Part shown: piece by piece, positions 23,554 to 63,839 of the stretch | Layout: each line of letters opens with the position of its first letter | How positions within the stretch are numbered: position 1 is the first letter of the stretch | NCBI GenBank assembly: GCA_963828465.1 | Contig: CAWHEU010000002.1 | Coordinates: 128,001-192,000 of the forward strand | From: an uncultured Acidobacteriota bacterium | GTDB lineage: Bacteria > Actinomycetota > Acidimicrobiia > Spongiisociales > ZC4RG35 | Direction: 5' to 3' | Length of the DNA: 64,000 nucleotides | Notes under the pieces: generated by a model | Databases searched by the model: none | Seen by the model: only the letters and a program-made list of their open reading frames with translations | What the model was told of the DNA's origin: nothing | Program-made: the position numbers and the translations under genes

Positions 23554-23645
23554 GCTCGTGTCCTTTCGTGGGAGGCGAATGTTGCCACTGCGATCGATCC
23601 CGGTTGATACTGAATCCAGGAGGTCTGGAGACCGATATACGGTCC

Positions 23646-24737
23646 ATGCCTGTGCGAATCCTGTCTTTGGCGCGCCTGACTGCATTGTTGGCCGTCGTCC
23701 TCGTGGCGTCCTGCTCGGCTGCCTCGCCGGAGACGACAGTGGGCAACTCGACCACGAGCGCATCACCGGCGTCGTCGTCCTCGACCAGACCCACCTCGAC
23801 GACGACGACGAGCACCACGACTCTTCCCGGGTCGACCACGACTGAAGTGTCCACGACGACGACCGTCGCTGCCATCGCAACCACCACCACCACGACCACC
23901 ACCGTCATCGCTCCGCCCGTAGACGACCCCCTGTACTCGCCACCGGCGACCGGCCTCTCCGGCGACCCCTCAGCCGCGATGCCGCCGGGCGCCGAGGACG
24001 TGACGGTGGCTTCGATAACAGACGGCGATACCCTCGATGTCCGGGCCGATGACGGGTCGGTCTTCGAGGTCAGGATCATCGGGACCAATACACCCGAGAG
24101 GGGTGAGTGCTTCGCGGACGAGGCCACGCGGGTTCTCGCTGCGTTGGCCCCGCCGGGCTCGAGGATCGGCATGACGAGCGATGTGTCTGACATCGACCAG
24201 TTCGATCGACTTCTGCGCTACTTGTGGGTCGGGGCCATGTCGATCAACGAGGAGACAGTTCGCCGCGGGGCCGCCCTCTCGAGGAGCTATCCCCCTGACA
24301 CGGCGATGACCGAACGGTTCGATGATGCCCAGGCCGCAGCCAAGGAGGCGGGGCTCGGCCTGTGGTCGCCTACGGCGTGCGGCCCACGTGCCGAGGCCAC
24401 GCTGGGCATCGTCGAGGTGATGTCCGACGCCCCGGGGAACGACAACGAGAATCTCAACGGGGAGTGGGTCGCGATCCGGAACGAGGGAGAGACCTCGGTC
24501 GATCTCACCGGCTGGGGGATCAAGGACGAGTCGGCCAGCCACCGGTACGAGTTCCCGGTGTCATTCACCCTTCTTCCCGGGGAGACGGTCACCGTGAGGA
24601 CCGGCTGCGGCGCCGATTTCGACACCGATCTGTATTGGTGCAACCAGGGATCAGCTGTCTGGAACAACGGCGGCGACACCGCCTTCCTCCTCGATCCCAG
24701 CGGCAACACCCACGTCGCTTACGCCTATTCGGGGTGA
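23646..24737 (+). CDS. Secreted lipoprotein with thermonuclease (SNase) and lamin-tail domains
   Basis: VAS-C lipobox, Thr/Ser linker, DGDT, VRIIGTNTPE, DQFDRLLRY, GLGLW; LTD motifs EWVAIRN, DLTGW, VWNNGGD. Confidence 0.88.
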   Translation: MPVRILSLARLTALLAVVLVASCSAASPETTVGNSTTSASPASSSSTRPTSTTTTSTTTLPGSTTTEVSTTTTVAAIATTTTTTTTVIAPPVDDPLYSPPATGLSGDPSAAMPPGAEDVTVASITDGDTLDVRADDGSVFEVRIIGTNTPERGECFADEATRVLAALAPPGSRIGMTSDVSDIDQFDRLLRYLWVGAMSINEETVRRGAALSRSYPPDTAMTERFDDAQAAAKEAGLGLWSPTACGPRAEATLGIVEVMSDAPGNDNENLNGEWVAIRNEGETSVDLTGWGIKDESASHRYEFPVSFTLLPGETVTVRTGCGADFDTDLYWCNQGSAVWNNGGDTAFLLDPSGNTHVAYAYSG

Positions 24738-51386: not shown

Positions 51387-51413
51387 TAAACCCCGGCGTC
51401 TGACAGCCGAGAC
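51387..51413 (+). promoter_or_regulatory. Candidate sigma28-like promoter
   Basis: TAAA-N15-GCCGAGAC ending 9 nt before ATG 51423. Confidence 0.4.
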
Positions 51414-51422
51414 AATTACTAC

Positions 51423-52397
51423 ATGACCGGTCTTCGCCCGCCGCCCAAGGCAGAAACCACGAGCCGGGTCTTCCTGCGGTTCGTGGTGCTCGTCCTCCTA
51501 TTGATCGCGGCCGGGGCGGCGATCTGGACGACGGTCACCCTCGATCGCATCGAGCTCATCGAAGACGTTTCGCTCGGGGATCTAGAGAACGACACCGTCG
51601 AGACCACCAACGGCACGGTTCTCAATGTCGTGAGACAGGGAGAAGGGGCTGTTCCTCTCGTGCTGCTTCACGACGTCGACGTGGCCGGAGGGGTGATCTG
51701 GGACGGGGTGGTTGACGAGCTCGACCCGAGATTCTCGGTGATGCGAGTCGATCTCCCAGGTTTCGGCCTCAGCGCCCGGATCCCCGAAGAGGGGAGCCGG
51801 CACACCGTCGCCTCGATGGCCGAGGAGGTCTCTGACGTCATCCAGCAGTCCTTCGGCCAGCCTGCAGTCGTCGCCGGCATCGGGCTCGGGGGCGAGGTTG
51901 CCGCCGAGATAGCTGTGACCCACCCCGATCTCGTTGCCGGCCTGGTCATGCTCGATGTCGACTTCTTCAAACCCCGGGCATGGGACGAATTCGTCGAGAG
52001 GCTGCCGTGGGTTGGCATTGCGGCCACTTACGCCCTCGAGACCGGTGGACCGTTCGCCGCCGGTCGCTGGGCACCCAATTGTGAGAGTGGAGGATGGTGC
52101 CCGACACCCAGCCAGGTCCAGGCACGGGATAGGGCCGAGACCATCGTGGACACATCCGAGTCGATTCATTTCTTCCGCCGGACTCCGGCCGCCTCACAGG
52201 TGCCATCGAAGCTGGGCGAGATCAACACGCCAACCAGCTATCTCTGGAGCCAGGCCGGAGATGTCCCGCGGGAATCGGTCGACCGGGTCCAGGAGGCCAT
52301 GCCGGCCGCAACAGTCGAAGTGGTGACCGAGGCGTGGAAGGCACATCTGGACACCCCGGGAGTCGTGGCGTCGACCATCGCCGGCTTCCTGCAGTAG
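51423..52397 (+). CDS. Membrane-anchored alpha/beta hydrolase-fold protein, apparently non-catalytic
   Basis: N-terminal TM segment and DLPGFGLS. GIGLGG stands in place of GxSxG and LLHD in place of LHG. Confidence 0.8.
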   Translation: MTGLRPPPKAETTSRVFLRFVVLVLLLIAAGAAIWTTVTLDRIELIEDVSLGDLENDTVETTNGTVLNVVRQGEGAVPLVLLHDVDVAGGVIWDGVVDELDPRFSVMRVDLPGFGLSARIPEEGSRHTVASMAEEVSDVIQQSFGQPAVVAGIGLGGEVAAEIAVTHPDLVAGLVMLDVDFFKPRAWDEFVERLPWVGIAATYALETGGPFAAGRWAPNCESGGWCPTPSQVQARDRAETIVDTSESIHFFRRTPAASQVPSKLGEINTPTSYLWSQAGDVPRESVDRVQEAMPAATVEVVTEAWKAHLDTPGVVASTIAGFLQ

Positions 52398-56605: not shown

Positions 56606-57694
56606 ATGCGTGCCCAGACGCCGATCCGCGTCGTCACCCTTCTCACCGTCACCGGTCTGGTCGCTGTCCTCTTCCCCCTCGCCGGCCAGGCGGTGACCAA
56701 GACCCAGGTCGAGGAGGCTTGCGCCGATTCTCGTGCCCAACTCGAGGAGTATCGGTCCGCCCAGGAAGCGTTCGAGGTCGCGGCCCACGAATACGAAGGC
56801 GCCGTGATCGAAGTCGATCGCGTGGAGAGGAAACAGGAGTCCGTGGCGGGCTCGGTGTCCAGCCACACCGAGGATCTGGATGAGATCCAGACCAGGATCG
56901 AGGAACAGGCCGTGGAGCTCTACATGCGAGGCGGGCTGGCCAGCCCGGGCATCATCTTCTCGGCTTCGTCGGTCGACGAATTCATGACCACCTCCGAATT
57001 CCTCACCACCGCCGCCACCGGGGGTCAGGAGTCGCTTGATGAGCTGGTCGCCGCCCGTAGCGAGCTGAATCGGTTCCAGGCCGTCCTCGACGACACCCGT
57101 GTCGAGCTGGAGGCGGTGGAGGCCCAAAAGCTCGATGCCCGGAGCAATCAGGAAGCGGCGATGGAGGCCGAGCAGGCGGCGTATGCCCAGTTGTCCGGCC
57201 GATGCAAGGAGCTCGCCACTGAGTACGACCGCGAGCAGGCGGAGCTGGCGGCACGGGCCCGGCAGCGAGCTTCCGGCTCGGTGCAGGTCGGCTCTTTCAT
57301 CTGCCCCTTCACCCCCGGGCGCACGTCGTTCATCGACTCCTGGGGGGCGTCGAGATCAGGGGGGCGCGCCCACAAAGGGACAGACCTGTTCGCCGCCTGG
57401 AACGAGCCGATGTACGCGGTCACCTCAGGTCGCGTCTCGCTTGGCAGCAGCGGGCTCGGTGGCAACACGATCTGGCTGCTGGCCGACAATGGGATCGCCT
57501 ATTACTACGCCCACCTCTCCGATTTCAACGTCGCCTCGGGATCGTCGGTCAGCCAGGGCCAGACGATCGGATTCAACGGTGACAGTGGAAACGCCAGGGG
57601 TGGCTCACCGCACCTCCACTTCGAGATCCACCCCGGTGGACGGGGCTCGTCCGCCGTCAACCCCTATGCAACGCTGGCAGGGGCATGCAGGTAG
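56606..57694 (+). CDS. Coiled-coil plus M23 peptidoglycan endopeptidase
   Basis: Signal peptide, long coiled coil, HKGTD, YYAHL, PHLHFEI. Confidence 0.92.
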
Positions 57695-57704
57695 CCTGCC
57701 TCCC

Positions 57705-58235
57705 GTGAGCGAGCATCGTCGCAGAATCGACACCGTTCTCGAGCCGGATTATCTGGCCGACATCTCCGAGGCCGACCTCGATGAGCTGCGGAGGCGCCGG
57801 GAGTCCGCCGAGGACGTCGAGGCGCAGATCTCGTATTACCGCCGTCTGCTCCATGGAAGGGTGGATCTGCTCAATTTCGAGCTACGCCGGCGCAGCGGGC
57901 AGGAGGAGCGGAGTCTGATCGAGGCATTGCCCGAGATCCTGGCCTCAGGGATGACCTTCGGCAACGAGCCCAACCTGCGACATCTCGACCCGATGCCTCC
58001 GATCCCGGCCACCACGGGCCGGCGACTCATCGACAAGATCATGGATGACGGGATCCTCACACAGCTTCCGGAGCTGACCGACGATGAGCTCACCGAGGCG
58101 ATCGACCGCGTGCAGGAGGTGGAGGCCGAGCTCTCGGCACAGCGGCGCCAGCTGCATGTGGTGATCGACGCCCTCCAGGACGAGATCATCGCCCGCTATC
58201 GGAGCCAGCAGGGCGAAGCTCAGCCAGCGGGCTGA
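57705..58235 (+). CDS. rsiG: RsiG/AmfC-like c-di-GMP-binding anti-sigma factor
   Basis: Two ExxxSxxRxxx(H)xxxD motifs (EAQISYYRRLLHGRVD, EAELSAQRRQLHVVID), RRIDTVLEPDYL and EIIARYR. TAGCCT -10 with a leaderless GTG. Confidence 0.82.
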   Translation: MSEHRRRIDTVLEPDYLADISEADLDELRRRRESAEDVEAQISYYRRLLHGRVDLLNFELRRRSGQEERSLIEALPEILASGMTFGNEPNLRHLDPMPPIPATTGRRLIDKIMDDGILTQLPELTDDELTEAIDRVQEVEAELSAQRRQLHVVIDALQDEIIARYRSQQGEAQPAG

Positions 58236-58238
58236 AGG

Positions 58239-59192
58239 TTGCTCGCGGCCAGAACACGTTCGGGTCTGGTCGAGACGATGCACGACGGGGCGGTCGCCGT
58301 TGTGTCCGCCGACGGTGCTTTGGTGGCCCATTCGGGCGACATCGACCAACCCTTCTTCCTCCGGTCCGCCGCCAAGCCGTTTCAGGCTCTCGTTTCGCAA
58401 GAGCACGGGGCGGCCCTGGGGCCTCTCGAGCTCGCCCTCTCCTGTGCGTCCCACGACGGTCATCCCGTGCACGTCGCCCTGGTCGAGTCGATGCTCGCCC
58501 GCGTCGGGCTCCGGGAGACCGATCTCCAATGCCCGCCGAGCTGGCCACTGTCGGCAGAAGCCGAGACCCGACTCCGGATGGAGATGGGAAGCAGTGGCGA
58601 GCCACGCCCGATCTGGCACGACTGTTCCGGCAAACACGCGGGTTGGCTCCGGGCTTGTCAGACACAAGGTTGGATGATCGATGGCTATCTGGCCCCGGAT
58701 CACCCCCTCCAGGTGGCGATCACCGATCTGATCGCCGATCTGAGTGGCTTTCCGGTTTCGCCGGTGGGGGTGGACGGTTGTGGGGCGCCCGTCCATCGCA
58801 CGACCACCCGGGCCATGGCGACTCTCTACGCCCGCCTCGCATCGCTCCCACGGCTCAGGGAGGTCTTCGAGACAATGCATCGCTATCCGGCGCTGGTATC
58901 GGGCACCGGCAATGGTGATGCATCGATCGGGAGTGCACTGAACACAGCTGCCAAACGAGGGGCGGCCGGCTGCATCGGTGTGGCACTCGATGGAAGGTTG
59001 GGTATTGCGGTCAAGTCCTGGGACGGGATCCAGGAGGTCGCCGATGCCGCGGCGATCGCCACTCTCGCCGGGTTGGGAGAGATGCCACCAATTGCAGGAG
59101 ATCGTCTCGCCTCGCTTGCCCGGCCCACGGTCCTCGGCGGTGGCCGTCCCGTAGGCGAGCTCGAGCCGACTGTGGATTTGCAATGGGCATGA
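58239..59192 (+). CDS. L-asparaginase II (rhizobial AnsA-type) family protein
   Basis: RSGLVE..H, RSAAKPFQA, CASH, CSGKHAG, VDGCGAP. Confidence 0.88.
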   Translation: MLAARTRSGLVETMHDGAVAVVSADGALVAHSGDIDQPFFLRSAAKPFQALVSQEHGAALGPLELALSCASHDGHPVHVALVESMLARVGLRETDLQCPPSWPLSAEAETRLRMEMGSSGEPRPIWHDCSGKHAGWLRACQTQGWMIDGYLAPDHPLQVAITDLIADLSGFPVSPVGVDGCGAPVHRTTTRAMATLYARLASLPRLREVFETMHRYPALVSGTGNGDASIGSALNTAAKRGAAGCIGVALDGRLGIAVKSWDGIQEVADAAAIATLAGLGEMPPIAGDRLASLARPTVLGGGRPVGELEPTVDLQWA

Positions 59193-59608
59193 GAGAGGTG
59201 CTCGAGCGTCGAATCGAGCGATGGCTCGCCGACCCCGATTCGAGCGTCGAGTACGCCGAAGAGGTCGAGGGCCGCTGGGCGGTGCGGATGCGGCAGGAGG
59301 TGCGCGACGCCACCACCACTTGGTTCACGATCGGGCAGCGCAGCCTCGAGTACGAGGCATACGTCCTGCCGGCGGAAGAGGCCGGCAGCGAGTTGTTGAG
59401 GCAGGCGTTGCAGAGGAACATGAAAGGGTGGCGGTCGTACTTCGCCCTCGACCAAGAGGGCGGGCTGGTGCTGCGCGGGCGACTTGCCGAGCCTCAGGTG
59501 ACCGACCTCGAGCTCGACCTTGTCCTGGGCGAGATCTATGACGCCATCGAGGTCGGCTTCCGACCATTACTCCGCTCCCTCATCGCAGGTCGCGAAAATT
59601 CCGGTTAG
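59189..59608 (+). CDS. YbjN domain (T3SS chaperone-like) protein
   Basis: ALQRN, FALDQEGGLVLRGRL, ELDLVLG. ATGA-coupled to the upstream gene. Confidence 0.75.
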   Translation: MREVLERRIERWLADPDSSVEYAEEVEGRWAVRMRQEVRDATTTWFTIGQRSLEYEAYVLPAEEAGSELLRQALQRNMKGWRSYFALDQEGGLVLRGRLAEPQVTDLELDLVLGEIYDAIEVGFRPLLRSLIAGRENSG

Positions 59609-59613
59609 AAACT

Positions 59614-59649
59614 TGTGAACAAACCCATGTGGACAAAGCCTGTGGAAAG
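59614..59649 (-). promoter_or_regulatory. Cluster of three co-oriented DnaA boxes
   Basis: TTGTTCACA (59614-22), TTGTCCACA (59628-36) and CTTTCCACA (59641-49) on the minus strand, 13-14 bp apart. Confidence 0.65.
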
Positions 59650-59748
59650 TGGCGATTCCTGTTGGTAACGCCGATCGAGGCCGAATCGGCGCCCTATTTG
59701 GTGATGCTGAGCGTTACTTGGCGTTAGACGGCGTCCAGGCCGGGGTCG

Positions 59749-59777
59749 TTGCTTCCAGGCCGCAGAACCCGTACCTT
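59749..59777 (+). promoter_or_regulatory. SigmaA-type promoter
   Basis: TTGCTT-N17-TACCTT. Confidence 0.6.
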
Positions 59778-59784
59778 TGGCGCT

Positions 59785-59869
59785 GCGAACGCCCGAGAGG
59801 CAAACCAGAGAACCGTCCGTTCGGGGAAGTGCGGAGGAGGCTCAGGTAGGTCACTCGGGCGTTTGTTTT
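59785..59869 (+). ncRNA. Candidate ~85-nt hairpin small RNA of unrecognised family
   Basis: 5' CGAACGCCCGAG pairs with 3' CTCGGGCGTTTG, followed by TTTT. Inner stems are present, a promoter lies directly upstream, and there is no credible ORF. Confidence 0.55.
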
Positions 59870-59919
59870 CATGCGGGCTCGCCGGATGGCACCAGTCTCG
59901 ATCCGGTACGATCGGTAAC

Positions 59920-60777
59920 TTGGCCGGCCTCCAGAAGAAGAACCTCGACAAGCCGGACGAGCGCGTCCAGTTCGACGGGCTCGAGGCCGACATCGTGCAG
60001 GTGGGCGAGACCTCGATCTCCCGGAATGTGTTTCAACCCGGTGCTCACTGTGCCCTTGGCGGGCGCCGTCTGAGTGGCAACCATCGAGCAAAGGAGAGCT
60101 GTCAGGCCCATCACTCAGGTGTCGTCGTTCAGGGGCGGTTACGGATCGAGATGGACGACGGCTCGGCTATGGATCTGGGGCCTAACGAAGTGTTCGACAT
60201 ACCTCGGGGCCACGACGGTTGGGTGGTGAGCGAAGAGCCCTGGGTCGGCATCAACTGGTCCGGAGTCCGCACCTGGCTTCCTCAGGTCGAGTCCGGCGAC
60301 CGGGTCCTGGCCACCCTTCTCTTCACCGACATCGTGTCTTCTACCGAGAAGGCCGTTCAGTTGGGTGACAGTGCGTGGCGTGATCTCCTGGGCCGACACA
60401 ATCAGGAGGTCAGGGACCAGCTCGATAAGTTTCGAGGACGCGAGGTCACCACGACCGGAGATGGGTTTCTGGCAGTCTTCGACGGGGCGGCCAGGGCCAT
60501 CCATGCAGCGCACGCCATACGTGATCGCGCCCGCGGCCTCGGTCTAGAAATCCGATCCGGGATCCACACCGGTGAGGTCGAGGTGGTGGGCGACGATGTC
60601 AGGGGCGTCGCGGTGCACGAAGCGGCCCGGATCGCAGCGGTGGCTTCACCGGGTGAGATCCTCGTCTCCTCAATGACTCATGACCTGGCTGCCGGCGGCG
60701 AGTTCACCTTCGAGGAGACACCGGGTCGAGAGCTCAAGGGCTTTTCCGGAGCGAGAATCTTGCATACGGTTGTGTAG
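59920..60777 (+). CDS. Cupin-domain plus class III adenylate/guanylate cyclase
   Basis: TACGAT-N7-TTG leaderless start. SCQAHH...HDGWV cupin; FTDIVSST, TGDGF, RSGIHTGE, HEAARI. Confidence 0.88.
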   Translation: MAGLQKKNLDKPDERVQFDGLEADIVQVGETSISRNVFQPGAHCALGGRRLSGNHRAKESCQAHHSGVVVQGRLRIEMDDGSAMDLGPNEVFDIPRGHDGWVVSEEPWVGINWSGVRTWLPQVESGDRVLATLLFTDIVSSTEKAVQLGDSAWRDLLGRHNQEVRDQLDKFRGREVTTTGDGFLAVFDGAARAIHAAHAIRDRARGLGLEIRSGIHTGEVEVVGDDVRGVAVHEAARIAAVASPGEILVSSMTHDLAAGGEFTFEETPGRELKGFSGARILHTVV

Positions 60778-60793
60778 CAAGCCTGTTGTCGAA

Positions 60794-61510
60794 TCAATCG
60801 TGACAAAGCTGGGCGAATCGGCTCGCCTCGAGGCACGACTGCCCGGGGATCACGGCCTTGTCCGGTGGCACGACCATCGTTGTGGTGGTAGTCGGCGGCG
60901 CCGCGGTGGTGGTGGTCGAAGGTGCGGTTGTGGTCGGTGCCGGAGTCGCCGGCTCGCCTCCCTCGTTCGACGGCGGTGCAGTGGTGGCCGGTGAGTCGGT
61001 AGGTGGCGGTGGCGGAGCCGGGGCTTCGGTGGTGGGAGGTGCCTCGGTCGTCGGTGGGGCGGTTTCGCCCTTCTTCATGAACACAACGGTGACGTAAAGG
61101 GATCCATCGCTGCTGGTGTCGGTCCCGACGCCGACGTAGTTGTAATCGCCGAGGATGTTGGCGGCGTGCCCGGAGGAGTTCATGAACGCCGTGTGCAGGG
61201 AGGAGGGCGACTGCCCTCTTCCGACATTCTCACCGACCTGTGACCAGCCACTTCCGGCGGCGGCCGAGAGCTCCCCTGAACTGGAGTGAAAGATGTCACC
61301 CTTGTCGATCATTGCCTGGGTGTGATTCCGGGCATGTGAGCGGAGACCGCCGTCTACTTCGAGGGGCCCCAGTCCGTTGTTGGCGCGGGTCGAGTTGATC
61401 AGGGAGACGAACTCGCTCTCCGTTCCCGAATCAGCGGTTGCGGCGACGCCGAGCGCGGTCGAGATGAATGCGACCAGCAACAGCGAGAGCCAATGCTTTT
61501 TCCCGGGCAT
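60794..61510 (-). CDS. Secreted CAP (SCP) domain protein with a Pro/Thr-rich tail
   Basis: Signal peptide, INSTRANNGL, GENVG, FMNSSGHAANIL, VGVG. Confidence 0.9.
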   Translation of the reverse strand: MPGKKHWLSLLLVAFISTALGVAATADSGTESEFVSLINSTRANNGLGPLEVDGGLRSHARNHTQAMIDKGDIFHSSSGELSAAAGSGWSQVGENVGRGQSPSSLHTAFMNSSGHAANILGDYNYVGVGTDTSSDGSLYVTVVFMKKGETAPPTTEAPPTTEAPAPPPPPTDSPATTAPPSNEGGEPATPAPTTTAPSTTTTAAPPTTTTTMVVPPDKAVIPGQSCLEASRFAQLCHD

Positions 61511-61518
61511 CCTTGGGG

Positions 61519-61546
61519 TTATCGGCCCCGATGCGAAACCCCTTGA
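61519..61546 (-). promoter_or_regulatory. Sigma28 (WhiG/FliA-type) promoter of the CAP gene
   Basis: TCAAG-N15-GCCGATAA ending 8 nt before the ATG. Confidence 0.75.
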
Positions 61547-61573
61547 GTCACCGGACGTACTAAGTAGATCGCC

Positions 61574-62455
61574 TCAGATCCCGAACATGACCTCGCGCAG
61601 GCTGATCACACTTGCCTCGAGCGTCACCGGGTCGAGACGCATCGATCCAAGACGGAGACCCTTCATCCCTTCGCCGGTGTTGGTCATCACCCTGAGCCCG
61701 TCTTCCTCGTTACCGAGGATCCCGAGTCCCAGGCAACCACCGTCCTCGTCCTGTACGCCGACCAGCACATCGTCGAGCCGTCCCAGGTTGAGACCCATCG
61801 GAAGCGTCGGTGCGAAGACCGTGGGCCGGACCTTCCACCGATCGAGTGGCGGAGCCAGCGCCCGGGCAAAGGACTCGGTCCTCCGCTGGGCTCGCTCGTC
61901 AGGGGAGATGGGCATCACATTGGGGTCGGCGGGGGTGACGGTCACCTCCATGCCGAGGAACCGGCGCAGCATCCCGACCACCGGCTCCATCTCACCGCCA
62001 CGTTGCAGGGCAACGACCTTGTCCGGCCGACACAGCTCCGCCTTGTGGTACTTGAGAGTCTCGCCGGCGACCCCGGAAACGACTGCGGTGGTATCGAGGA
62101 TCACGAGGTCGGCCATCCCCCTGGCCACGTCGACCATCGCCGCTGTGGCGACGACCTGTTGCAGGACGAGGCGCGCTGGGGAGATGGTGCCCACGAAGTG
62201 GAGCCGGTCCGGTGTCGCCACGTCATCGAGGTCCTCTGGAGTGCGAAGGATCTTCAACCCGACACACGCCGGGGGCCCGACGGTCGAGTTGCCCACGTCG
62301 GCGTCGACGATCGCCACGGTCCGGCCGGCGCCGAGGGCGAGACGAGCCGCCTGTAGGGCCAGGGTCGTCTTCCCCGTGTCGACGCTGCCCAGGAGCATCG
62401 CCACATTCGCACGGGACACCTCCCGCGCGACTCCGTCGTGGCTCGTCTCAGACAT
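61574..62455 (-). CDS. Clp1/Nol9-family polynucleotide 5'-hydroxyl kinase
   Basis: GSVDTGKTT, DADVGNSTVGPP, FVGTISP, ILDTT, ERAQRR. TATATT-N6-ATG leaderless start. Confidence 0.85.
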   Translation of the reverse strand: MSETSHDGVAREVSRANVAMLLGSVDTGKTTLALQAARLALGAGRTVAIVDADVGNSTVGPPACVGLKILRTPEDLDDVATPDRLHFVGTISPARLVLQQVVATAAMVDVARGMADLVILDTTAVVSGVAGETLKYHKAELCRPDKVVALQRGGEMEPVVGMLRRFLGMEVTVTPADPNVMPISPDERAQRRTESFARALAPPLDRWKVRPTVFAPTLPMGLNLGRLDDVLVGVQDEDGGCLGLGILGNEEDGLRVMTNTGEGMKGLRLGSMRLDPVTLEASVISLREVMFGI

Positions 62456-62476
62456 CGCGGCAATATAGGACCACGC

Positions 62477-63310
62477 ATGACCGACAACGCACTCCCCATC
62501 AGCTTCCTGTCCGACTTCGGTCACTCCGACGAGTTCGTAGGCGTCGTGCATGGGGTGCTGGCCAAGCTGGCGCCGGAGTCACGGGTCATCGATGTCGGCC
62601 ATGGCACTCCGCGGGGTGATGTGAAGGCCGCCGCCCTCAGTCTGACCCGTGCCATCCAGTATCTCCCGGAAGGAGTCGCCCTCGTGGTGGTCGACCCCGG
62701 CGTCGGCTCCGAGCGCAAGGCGCTGGCCCTCGAGACGGACTGGGGTTTCTTCGTTGGTCCGGACAACGGGGTGCTGTCGCCAGCGGTGGCGATGGTGGGC
62801 GGGGCCCGGGTGATGGTCTCGATCGACAATCCCGAGGCGAGGATTCCATCGCCGGGCGAGACCTTTCAAGGCCGAGATGTATTCGCCCCGGCGGCTGCCC
62901 TCCTGGCCTCGGGGGAGGCCGCGATCCAGGATCTCGGTCCCGAGGTGGGTCCCGATGCCGTGCAGCCATTGCTGCTCCCTCTACCGGAGACGCAGGGAAG
63001 CCTGGTTACCGGCGAGGCGTGGTGGGTGGATCGGTTCGGGAACGTTCAGACCAACATCGGTCCCGACGACCTGGCCGCGGTAGGTGTCTCGCCCGGGTCC
63101 GTGTTGACGATGAAGGTGGGCGCCACTCTTCACACGATCACGTGGGCTGTCACCTATTCCGATGTGGAGCCCGGGGAGGCGCTGGTCCATGTCGATTCGG
63201 CCGGGCTGATTGCAATAGCGATTCGGGAGGGCGCAGCCGACGAGGAGTTGAACCTGTCCGCGGGCGTGGCGGTCACCCTGGCTGGGACAGGATCGACGTC
63301 AGCTGGATGA
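62477..63310 (+). CDS. SAM hydroxide adenosyltransferase / chlorinase-fluorinase family (DUF62)
   Basis: LSDFG, VVDPGVGSER, GPDNG, TFQGRDVFAP, VDRFGN. Confidence 0.9.
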   Translation: MTDNALPISFLSDFGHSDEFVGVVHGVLAKLAPESRVIDVGHGTPRGDVKAAALSLTRAIQYLPEGVALVVVDPGVGSERKALALETDWGFFVGPDNGVLSPAVAMVGGARVMVSIDNPEARIPSPGETFQGRDVFAPAAALLASGEAAIQDLGPEVGPDAVQPLLLPLPETQGSLVTGEAWWVDRFGNVQTNIGPDDLAAVGVSPGSVLTMKVGATLHTITWAVTYSDVEPGEALVHVDSAGLIAIAIREGAADEELNLSAGVAVTLAGTGSTSAG

Positions 63311-63374
63311 TGCCGGCGACTGCGATGAGAAGCAGAAGGATGACCAGGACGACGGCGGTGGCGGGTCTCAACAC
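63273..63374 (-). CDS. Putative 33-aa single-pass membrane peptide (below the ORF track cutoff)
   Basis: MLRPATAVVLVILLLLIAVAGIIQLTSILSQPG*. Confidence 0.5.
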   Translation of the reverse strand: MLRPATAVVLVILLLLIAVAGIIQLTSILSQPG

Positions 63375-63405
63375 TCACACGATGGCAGACCACGATCGGC
63401 CGCCG

Positions 63406-63444
63406 AAAAGTGATGAGGCCCCCACGCGTGGCGGGGGCCTCATC
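63406..63444 (-). terminator. Intrinsic terminator
   Basis: 12-bp perfect stem GATGAGGCCCCC/GGGGGCCTCATC, followed on the minus strand by ACTTTT. Confidence 0.75.
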
Positions 63445-63553
63445 TGCACGATTGGAGAGTTCCGTACCGTGGGGCGGGCTGGGAGGCTATCCGTTCACAC
63501 CTTGGACGAACGTGCCCTTGGTATGAGGGGAACGGTTGACCCTCCATCCGTGC
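63406..63553 (-). ncRNA. Candidate ~150-nt sigma28-dependent small RNA
   Basis: Bounded by a sigma28-type promoter and an intrinsic terminator. No convincing ORF. Confidence 0.5.
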
Positions 63554-63560
63554 GTGTCCA

Positions 63561-63588
63561 TTATCGGTCACCCACGGTGGTTACTTGA
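63561..63588 (-). promoter_or_regulatory. Sigma28 (WhiG/FliA-type) promoter
   Basis: TCAAG-N15-ACCGATAA, same geometry as the site at 61519-61546. Confidence 0.68.
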
Positions 63589-63839
63589 ACAATTCAGCCT
63601 TCAGATTCCTGATCAGGGCCGGTTGTCCTCTTTGCGATGAGGCGCGCCCGCTTGTCGAAAAGGCCGTGGCGAGCGTCGGTGGCACGGTCCGCGAGGTCGA
63701 TATCGACACCGACGATGCTCTGACCAGGGAATATGGGTTGCGGGTGCCGGTTCTCCTCGGGCCGGCCGACATCGTGCTGGCCGAGGGGAAGATCGAGGCG
63801 AGGCCTCTACGCAAGGCGTTGCGGAGAATGGCGAACTAG
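63585..63839 (+). CDS. Glutaredoxin-like protein (DUF836)
   Basis: RAGCPLCDEA, EVDID.D, YGLRVPVL. Confidence 0.85.
   Translation: MNNSAFRFLIRAGCPLCDEARPLVEKAVASVGGTVREVDIDTDDALTREYGLRVPVLLGPADIVLAEGKIEARPLRKALRRMAN

Follow-up and report, generated by a model that had tools for sequence, protein, structure and literature searches.

In Streptomyces, the anti-sigma factor RsiG, when bound to cyclic di-GMP (c-di-GMP), sequesters the FliA-family sigma factor WhiG. This pair is one of the few structurally understood routes of c-di-GMP control over a sigma factor, and its outputs beyond Streptomyces and Rubrobacter are known mainly by prediction. What, then, does the switch control in a lineage that carries it outside these two genera? 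The window considered here is a stretch of 64,000 nucleotides (nt), positions 128001 to 192000 of contig C2 in the focal genome, G000, which belongs to an uncultured bacterium of the class Acidimicrobiia (3.07 Mb, or 3,069,762 bases, in 29 contigs; 64% G+C; 92% complete). Positions without a contig name are those of the window. It contains an rsiG gene and two predicted WhiG-type promoters, one preceding a CAP gene and the other a small structured RNA. We consider it likely that the RsiG/WhiG switch drives conserved promoters of secreted-protein genes and of this small RNA, with c-di-GMP as the most likely ligand. The features on which this rests are:

57705 to 58235, plus strand: rsiG, encoding a twin-motif anti-sigma factor of 176 amino acids (Pfam RsiG and alignment to 6pfj_T)
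57819 to 57866, plus strand: RsiG motif 1, E39-x3-S43-x2-R46-x3-H50-x3-D54 (translation and alignment to S. venezuelae RsiG)
58122 to 58169, plus strand: RsiG motif 2, E140-x3-S144-x2-R147-x3-H151-x3-D155 (translation and alignment to S. venezuelae RsiG)
60794 to 61510, minus strand: gene for a CAP/YkwD-like protein of 238 amino acids (Pfam CAP, 44.4 bits)
61519 to 61546, minus strand (reads 61546 to 61519): predicted WhiG-type promoter of the CAP gene, TCAAG-N15-GCCGATAA, equivalent to the form TCAA-N16-GCCGATAA (sequence, consensus match and conservation)
63402 to 63553, minus strand: structured small RNA of about 150 nt, 5' end predicted (fold, covariation, no Rfam match, metatranscriptome cover)
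63412 to 63444, minus strand: terminator hairpin with a 14-bp stem, followed by CACUUUUCGG, a short U run (fold; helix 8, with compensatory changes in 9 of 14 pairs)
63471 to 63487, minus strand: invariant 17-mer GCCUCCCAGCCCGCCCC, mostly unpaired (alignment)
63561 to 63588, minus strand (reads 63588 to 63561): predicted WhiG-type promoter of the small RNA, TCAAG-N15-ACCGATAA, or TCAA-N16-ACCGATAA (sequence and conservation)

A sequence-only reading of the window had proposed an RsiG-like protein with twin motifs, and this is borne out. The open reading frame (ORF) at 57705-58235 scores 92 bits, in two stretches, on the Pfam family RsiG (PF22802, cut-off 27), and its residues 17-173 align with S. 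venezuelae RsiG (chain 6pfj_T, E 3.3e-15), with both motifs in register. In a set of 61 relatives, five of them unpublished (G018, G027, G028, G039 and G050, which also form part of the BLAST tallies below), RsiG was detected in 58 genomes and WhiG in 59 (56 above cut-off). Upstream of rsiG lies an M23 peptidase gene (56606-57694, plus strand) with a long, coiled-coil-like N-terminal half, whose stop codon stands 10 nt before rsiG; as only 10 nt separate them, the two genes are probably co-transcribed. A gene for a protein with a class III adenylate/guanylate cyclase domain lies 1.7 kb downstream of rsiG (59920-60777, plus strand).

The same proposal presupposed a sigma-28-family partner in the genome, and one is present. 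A single FliA/WhiG-family gene exceeds the TIGR02479 cut-off (C18:247056-247721, 267.6 bits vs 189.6), and the closest solved structure to its product is S. venezuelae WhiG (268 bits vs 162 for FliA). Flagellin and FlhA were both looked for in the 92%-complete genome and neither was found, which argues that the targets of this sigma factor are not flagellar. G000 combines such a sigma factor with RsiG in a genome without detected flagellin or FlhA. For the WhiG2 clade, Denis et al. 2026 (bioRxiv 10.64898/2026.01.14.699351) describe an association with RsiG and the absence of a flagellar cluster. Across an order-level sample of 151 genomes (families f1-f12), WhiG is above cut-off in 127.

The published WhiG consensus, T(A/C)AA-N16-GCCGATAA (Denis et al. 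2026, where it is that of WhiG2; Swiercz et al. 2008, PMC2602773), is matched exactly by the CAP site (-35 T(A/C)AA, 16-nt spacer, -10 GCCGATAA with its central CGA) and with one mismatch, in the first -10 base, by the RNA site. The identical geometry of the two promoters, as first noticed from the letters of the window, is therefore also that of the known consensus. When both strands of all 3,069,762 bases were scanned for the strict motif TCAAG-N15-[GA]CCGATAA, it occurred twice, at the CAP and small-RNA sites only, against 0.049 occurrences expected from half-site counts; the genome-wide scan thus returned precisely the proposed pair. Conservation upstream of orthologues, which the proposal also implied, was seen at both sites in the form cT(C/A)AAG-N14-16-nCCGATA, the conserved loci being kin and not independent of one another.

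Conservation is most extensive upstream of the small RNA. We tested 88 RNA loci from genomes other than G000 and the unpublished five, 47 of which had been detected solely by a covariance model built without the promoter. The pattern T[AC]AA-N15-17-nnCGA[TA]nn lies upstream of 86 of these 88 loci, while the genome-wide rate predicts 0.016 per region searched. Because the loci are kin, this figure is a footprint rather than a probability. The consensus of the RNA promoters is cT(C/A)AAG, spacer, (G/A)CCGATA, and among 67 distinct sites the spacer after T(C/A)AA is N16 in 47, N15 in 16 and N17 in 4. One of the two exceptions (L187) has TTAAG...TCCGAAGT upstream of the RNA; the other is taken up below.

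The CAP promoter is conserved over a shorter range. Of 25 genus loci aligned, all from published genomes, the CAP gene is recognisable at its place in 21, and 18 of these have T[AC]AA-N16-nnCGAT with a start codon 6-13 nt later. At the second base of the -35 element some loci have C and others A, in keeping with the consensus, whereas the spacer and the flanking sequence have diverged; the three remaining loci keep the -10 element and have a degenerate -35. At least four genomes lack the CAP gene at this place (G005, G010, G022 and G025), and in G005 and G010 another leaderless gene with the same motif occupies it. Beyond the genus, a search with the CAP region matched the neighbouring P-loop gene only. 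The -10 element ends 8 nt before the ATG (61510) in G000, and 8-9 nt before it in orthologous regions, from which a leaderless CAP mRNA is predicted. The encoded protein scores 67.8 bits on the NCBIfam YkwD family, below its cut-off of 171, and judged by eye its N-terminus resembles a signal peptide and its C-terminal part is rich in proline and threonine. Further along, a CLP1_P-type P-loop gene and a SAM hydroxide adenosyltransferase gene diverge with only about 22 nt between them (62456-62477) if internal ATG starts are used, a gap that suggests leaderless or overlapping promoters.

The RNA itself is strongly structured. Its predicted fold has a minimum free energy of -80.7 kcal/mol (z -5.85) and consists of an outer stem, an inner stem and a hairpin with the loop CACGUUC. 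In the alignment, 87.4% of cells are paired, vs 41-51% when the partner is slid, and 0/500 shuffles reach the observed values; because the imposed structure was derived from the fold of one member, G000, the contrast with slid partners is inflated. Compensatory changes occur in 26 of 46 pairs. G-U pairs are frequent, assigning the RNA to the minus strand, and the gene that follows it is convergent. In all 35 aligned sequences, again from published genomes, 17 consecutive columns are invariant (GCCTCCCAGCCCGCCCC), and this C-rich 17-mer lies in an internal loop. It contains CCUCC, which is also the anti-Shine-Dalgarno core of 16S rRNA.

We found no match for this RNA among described families. 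The whole window gave no Rfam 15 match at gathering score, and the RNA region searched at E<=10 gave only chance-level matches to snoRNA or terminator-like families. The 6C RNA (RF01066) has no match in the G000 genome at E<=1. Literature searches returned no description of this small RNA, or of any directly WhiG-driven small RNA. A peptide encoded in the RNA was considered and rejected: the 24 codons opened by an ATG that overlaps the -10 element begin before the predicted RNA start, and this ATG is not conserved.

How widespread is the RNA? By BLAST, with the unpublished genomes included, it was found in 30/30 genomes of the genus and in 6/6 other genera of the family, with a conserved core in other families. 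The covariance model found one copy each in 65 of the 151 genomes of the order, distributed as 19/19 in f1, 7/7 in f5, 17/18 in f6, 16/18 in f12, 2/2 in f4 (both unpublished), 1/2 in f3 and 2/19 in f2, with zero matches in f7, f8, f9, f10 and f11. The two f2 matches are weak (34-36 bits) and were taken as probably false, since the sequence is coding-like and the motif is missing. The exact 17-mer is present as a single copy in 60/151 genomes, and a reversed-pattern control in none. Of these 60 genomes, 59 also have WhiG, which is weak evidence for a connection because only one family lacks WhiG and co-occurrence is confounded by descent. That family, f10, is without WhiG (0/18), RsiG (0/2), GGDEF (0/3) and the small RNA (0/18) together; several of its genomes are single contigs and 91-97% complete.

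Public genomes with the 17-mer gave at least 120 loci. Among the matches listed, the promoter motif accompanies 19/19 loci with a model score of at least 45 bits, 9/19 loci at 30-45 bits and 10/82 loci that score below 30 bits or are unmatched by the model. Nine of these last ten, again among the matches listed, are titled Acidimicrobiia, Actinomycetes or Actinomycetota, and in those nine the 17-mer is preceded, at a distance of about 90-125 nt, by TCAAG-N15-nnCGAT, a hint that they are more distantly related forms of the RNA. The many proteobacterial chance matches to the 17-mer in the same set serve as a negative control.

The closeness of the promoters and the small RNA to rsiG is a case of conserved synteny. 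In a hand tally of 41 published genomes with both rsiG and the small RNA, 30 have the two on one contig and at most 12 kb apart, and these span families f1, f3, f5, f6 and f12. The distance is 18 kb in one further genome, and in the other ten the two lie on different, mostly short, contigs. Two genomes, G012 (C34, C35) and G029 (C4, C5), have two diverged copies each of the whole region from rsiG through CAP to the RNA; given contamination figures of 5-8%, mixed strains in the bin are likelier than duplication.

Contigs from metatranscriptomes hint that the small-RNA region is transcribed. They cover 63378-63627 with 0-4 differences and come from two runs in two studies, plus one run merely guessed to be RNA; they carry neither strand, start nor end information, and the parts they leave uncovered are uninformative. 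One contig ends at 63546 in adapter-like letters, and we did not take this as a 5' end.

Does the regulon reach beyond these two promoters? A position weight matrix derived from the small-RNA promoters of genomes other than G000 was run on G000, and it ranked the small-RNA site first (32.1 bits), ahead of a site from which an M23 peptidase gene lies 258 nt downstream (23.2 bits), a site before a 72-codon ORF (20.6 bits), the CAP site (20.2 bits) and a histidine-kinase gene (19.2 bits). Eight of the top ten matches are intergenic, and in 8 of the 24 matches of at least 16 bits the start codon of a coding-like ORF follows the -10 element by 5-12 nt, vs 8.7% at control positions. A match within the leucyl-tRNA synthetase gene is a false positive. 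Across relatives, the motif is present in 13/13 loci of a leaderless HATPase_c gene of 262 amino acids, in 25/25 loci of a group-2 sigma gene, where the whole region is conserved and the footprint is less specific, and in 8/9 loci of the M23 peptidase site. The latter is followed by a conserved leader of about 260 nt without an Rfam match (C22:431850-432107, or L228:251-508), which is kept in 7-9 genus genomes and may be a cis-regulatory RNA; an Rfam search of this leader and three other loci returned only a tRNA.

Two weaker sites lie within the window:

23611 to 23638, plus strand: weaker WhiG-like site, TGAA-N16-ACCGATAT; the ATG of a gene for an SNase+LTD lipoprotein, a secreted nuclease (23646-24737), follows 7 nt downstream
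51387 to 51413, plus strand: ambiguous site, TAAA-N15-GCCGAGAC; the ATG of an alpha/beta hydrolase gene (51423-52397) follows 9 nt downstream

The sequence-only reading had placed weaker matches before two exported-protein genes. The site at 23611, before the secreted lipoprotein, is conserved in 12/12 aligned orthologous loci; its -35 element, TGAA, departs from T(A/C)AA. The site at 51387 is conserved in 19/21 loci, with palindromic co-variation, but it overlaps an inverted repeat (CTCGGCyG...CrGCCGAG, 51392-51412) that shows compensatory changes across the genus just upstream of the leaderless alpha/beta hydrolase gene. A promoter is thus no more likely here than an operator or a hairpin, and the site is ambiguous.

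Besides the M23 peptidase gene next to rsiG, two others elsewhere in the genome lie downstream of WhiG-like sites (C22:280315 and C22:431821). Identical 28-nt WhiG-like sites (CTCACG...GCCGATAA) occur at C26:3349-3376 and C16:6937-6964, 10 nt before identical 439-codon ORFs, and these are probably a repeated element or else an assembly duplicate. A hairpin element of about 58 nt (GAAGCCCCGACGGG...GGGGCTTCTTATTT) occurs twice, 500 nt apart (C22:431749-431806 and C22:431245-431301), and recurs in relatives; it looks like a repeated terminator.

Several results weigh against the reading that an RsiG/WhiG switch drives these promoters. The sigma factor scores 325.7 bits on the NCBIfam WhiG equivalog NF004935, just below the cut-off of 343, and this is still its best-scoring model. 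The a-priori consensus T[AC]AA-N16-GCCGATAA occurs once in the genome vs 0.115 expected, a weak enrichment, and because genome-wide enrichment is modest we take the regulon to be small. At the second exceptional RNA locus (L188, G063:C1:798013-798337), a sigma-70-like TTGACT-N17-TACAAT stands upstream of the RNA in a genome with WhiG, in what looks like a promoter swap. Families f2, f7, f8 and f11 have WhiG and RsiG and no credible RNA match, and f9 has one exact 17-mer in 18 genomes with zero model matches. To these come the inflated structural comparison noted above and the RNA and ligand results that follow.

Three metatranscriptome contigs continue beyond the predicted RNA start, reaching the promoter and the adjacent gene (records 7 and 15, from RNA runs, and record 16, from X20, the run only guessed to be RNA). 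Such contigs, which stretch over 63553-63627, would be expected if the second motif were instead the plus-strand sigma-70 -10 region of a glutaredoxin-like gene (63585-63839), with the RNA transcribed from elsewhere or by read-through, and a suitable TTGACC-17-CATTAT does stand on the plus strand at 63536-63564. We nevertheless find this very improbable: the scan gave one such site where 0.8 are expected, CCGATAC or CCGATAT in other families abolishes the plus-strand CATTAT and preserves the sigma-28 -10 element, the spacing of TCAAG is fixed to the -10 element and the RNA and not to the neighbouring gene, and the G-U pairs assign the RNA to the minus strand. A different doubt concerns what the RNA does. 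Over 2,913 start regions, three shuffled seeds gave duplex energies as good as those of the 17-mer, no target stood out, and a search of the genome for another perfect complement of the 17-mer was negative; near-contiguous pairing was best upstream of chorismate synthase, and this duplex was taken as chance. Together with 17 bases that are invariant over several families, which exceeds the usual need of a pairing seed, this would suit a protein-binding or sponge RNA (titrating an RNA-binding protein, for example) or a cis element rather than a base-pairing regulator. We regard that as distinctly unlikely, as a promoter and a terminator of its own are predicted for the RNA, which is followed by a convergent gene. 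C-rich unpaired stretches are, moreover, typical pairing seeds of Gram-positive small RNAs.

The ligand is harder to settle. G000 and 5/5 close relatives (92-98% complete) have no canonical GGDEF and no EAL domain, and a GGDDF-type protein only; in G000 this sole GGDEF-family protein is a REC-GGDEF fusion of 309 amino acids with the active site GGDDF in place of GG(D/E)EF (C18:38911-39840, or L009:1261-2190, minus strand), and a search of G000 for EAL found none. The gene sits between ribD-like and ribulose-phosphate-epimerase-like genes (named by eye). In addition, His replaces the Gln of the published motif in both RsiG motifs (H50 and H151). Canonical GGDEF domains are retained in the distant genus member G001, in G063 from another genus of the family, and in members of f2, f5, f6, f9 and f12, as would be expected if canonical diguanylate cyclases had been lost here and the pair now worked with another nucleotide or without a ligand. 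We think this unlikely: E, S, R and D are intact in both RsiG motifs, the His-variant RsiG of C. woesei binds c-di-GMP with a Kd of 25 uM (PMC8325347), G000 has at least five strong HD-GYP matches, its GGDDF protein retains the remaining GGDEF-domain landmarks (by eye), and GGDEF, WhiG and RsiG are jointly missing in f10.

We therefore favour a switch in which, as the Streptomyces and Rubrobacter structures would suggest, high levels of cyclic dinucleotide let RsiG hold WhiG, and falling levels would free WhiG to direct RNA polymerase to the conserved promoters. The small RNA would be the post-transcriptional arm, its unpaired C-rich 17-mer most likely pairing with G-rich, Shine-Dalgarno-like stretches in target mRNAs. 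From homology, we infer c-di-GMP control of the switch in this lineage, with synthesis by the REC-GGDDF protein and removal by HD-GYP proteins as the most likely arrangement. For this sub-lineage the ligand step is the least certain part, because only a GGDDF-type protein was found and both RsiG motifs are His variants. A more speculative extension, to which we give little credence, is that release of WhiG switches the mode of translation: the small RNA would mask the Shine-Dalgarno sites of leadered mRNAs and so favour the WhiG regulon, whose mRNAs would be mostly leaderless (CAP, nuclease, HATPase, kinase) and would have no such sites to block, and in this sub-lineage the source of the signal would be either one GGDDF cyclase under phosphorylation control or a nucleotide that is not c-di-GMP.

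Compared with the RsiG-WhiG pair of S. venezuelae (2020, PMC7005675), the G000 system has the same monomer-type RsiG of equal length, with two motifs on two helices, and the same promoter consensus. It differs in the His that replaces Gln in both motifs, in the canonical GGDEF enzymes, which were not found in the G000 sub-lineage, and in its targets, which are not the whiH/whiI-type sporulation regulators. The conserved promoters before the CAP gene and the small RNA support the earlier suggestion that the switch here controls secreted or surface proteins and a small RNA rather than sporulation genes. Rubrobacter radiotolerans is a non-sporulating actinobacterium in which the switch also serves a different regulon, with promoters likewise identified by consensus; there, type IV pili are under the control of an (RsiG)2-(c-di-GMP)2-WhiG switch (Schumacher et al. 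2021, PMC8325347). Its RsiG is a single-motif dimer, and its targets are pilus, diguanylate cyclase and phosphodiesterase genes with mapped start sites (PMC8325347). The RsiG of G000 has twin motifs, and the predicted targets comprise genes for secreted proteins and for regulators, together with a small RNA, all with predicted starts.

The regulon of WhiG1 and WhiG2 has also been predicted across the phylum (Denis et al. 2026), with the same search logic and consensus, and the predicted targets include sigma factors and regulators. That study could not find RNA genes because it required a start codon within 200 bp; its main text contains no mention of 'Acidimicrob', 'sRNA' or 'small RNA', and its supplementary tables may list related protein targets. 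Small RNAs that depend on sigma-28 are known from Escherichia coli and Campylobacter (Melamed et al. 2023, PMC10578931; PMC11187230). These, too, are a post-transcriptional arm of a flagellar-type sigma regulon, but they are tied to flagellar genes and mostly derived from untranslated regions, and they share no family with the RNA described here (cmscan of the region gave nothing relevant). The nearest actinobacterial case is scr1906 of Streptomyces coelicolor, a small RNA that is also linked to whiG: its expression needs whiG, no WhiG-type promoter was found and an indirect effect was proposed (Swiercz et al. 2008), whereas the RNA described here has a conserved consensus promoter immediately before it. 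That RsiG occurs in Acidimicrobiales, in its twin-motif form in 3/4 species, and that WhiG has non-sporulation regulons is already published (PMC8325347).

What is new here is the small RNA family and the content of the regulon. Another actinobacterial small RNA with C-rich unpaired stretches is the 6C RNA (RF01066), in which these stretches lie in hairpin loops and not, as here, in an internal loop. The switch itself is of a known kind, and what sets this variant apart is its conserved set of targets, the new RNA family among them, and an apparent loss of canonical cyclases. The analysis defines a conserved output of the RsiG/WhiG switch for an abundant, uncultured soil lineage and adds an order-wide new small RNA family with a consensus sigma-28 promoter, whose 17 invariant bases are a sharp handle for finding the partner of the RNA. 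Because RsiG, WhiG and the promoters are kept, while canonical diguanylate cyclases were not found, the lineage is also a natural test of whether a GGDDF enzyme, or some other ligand, can operate the switch.

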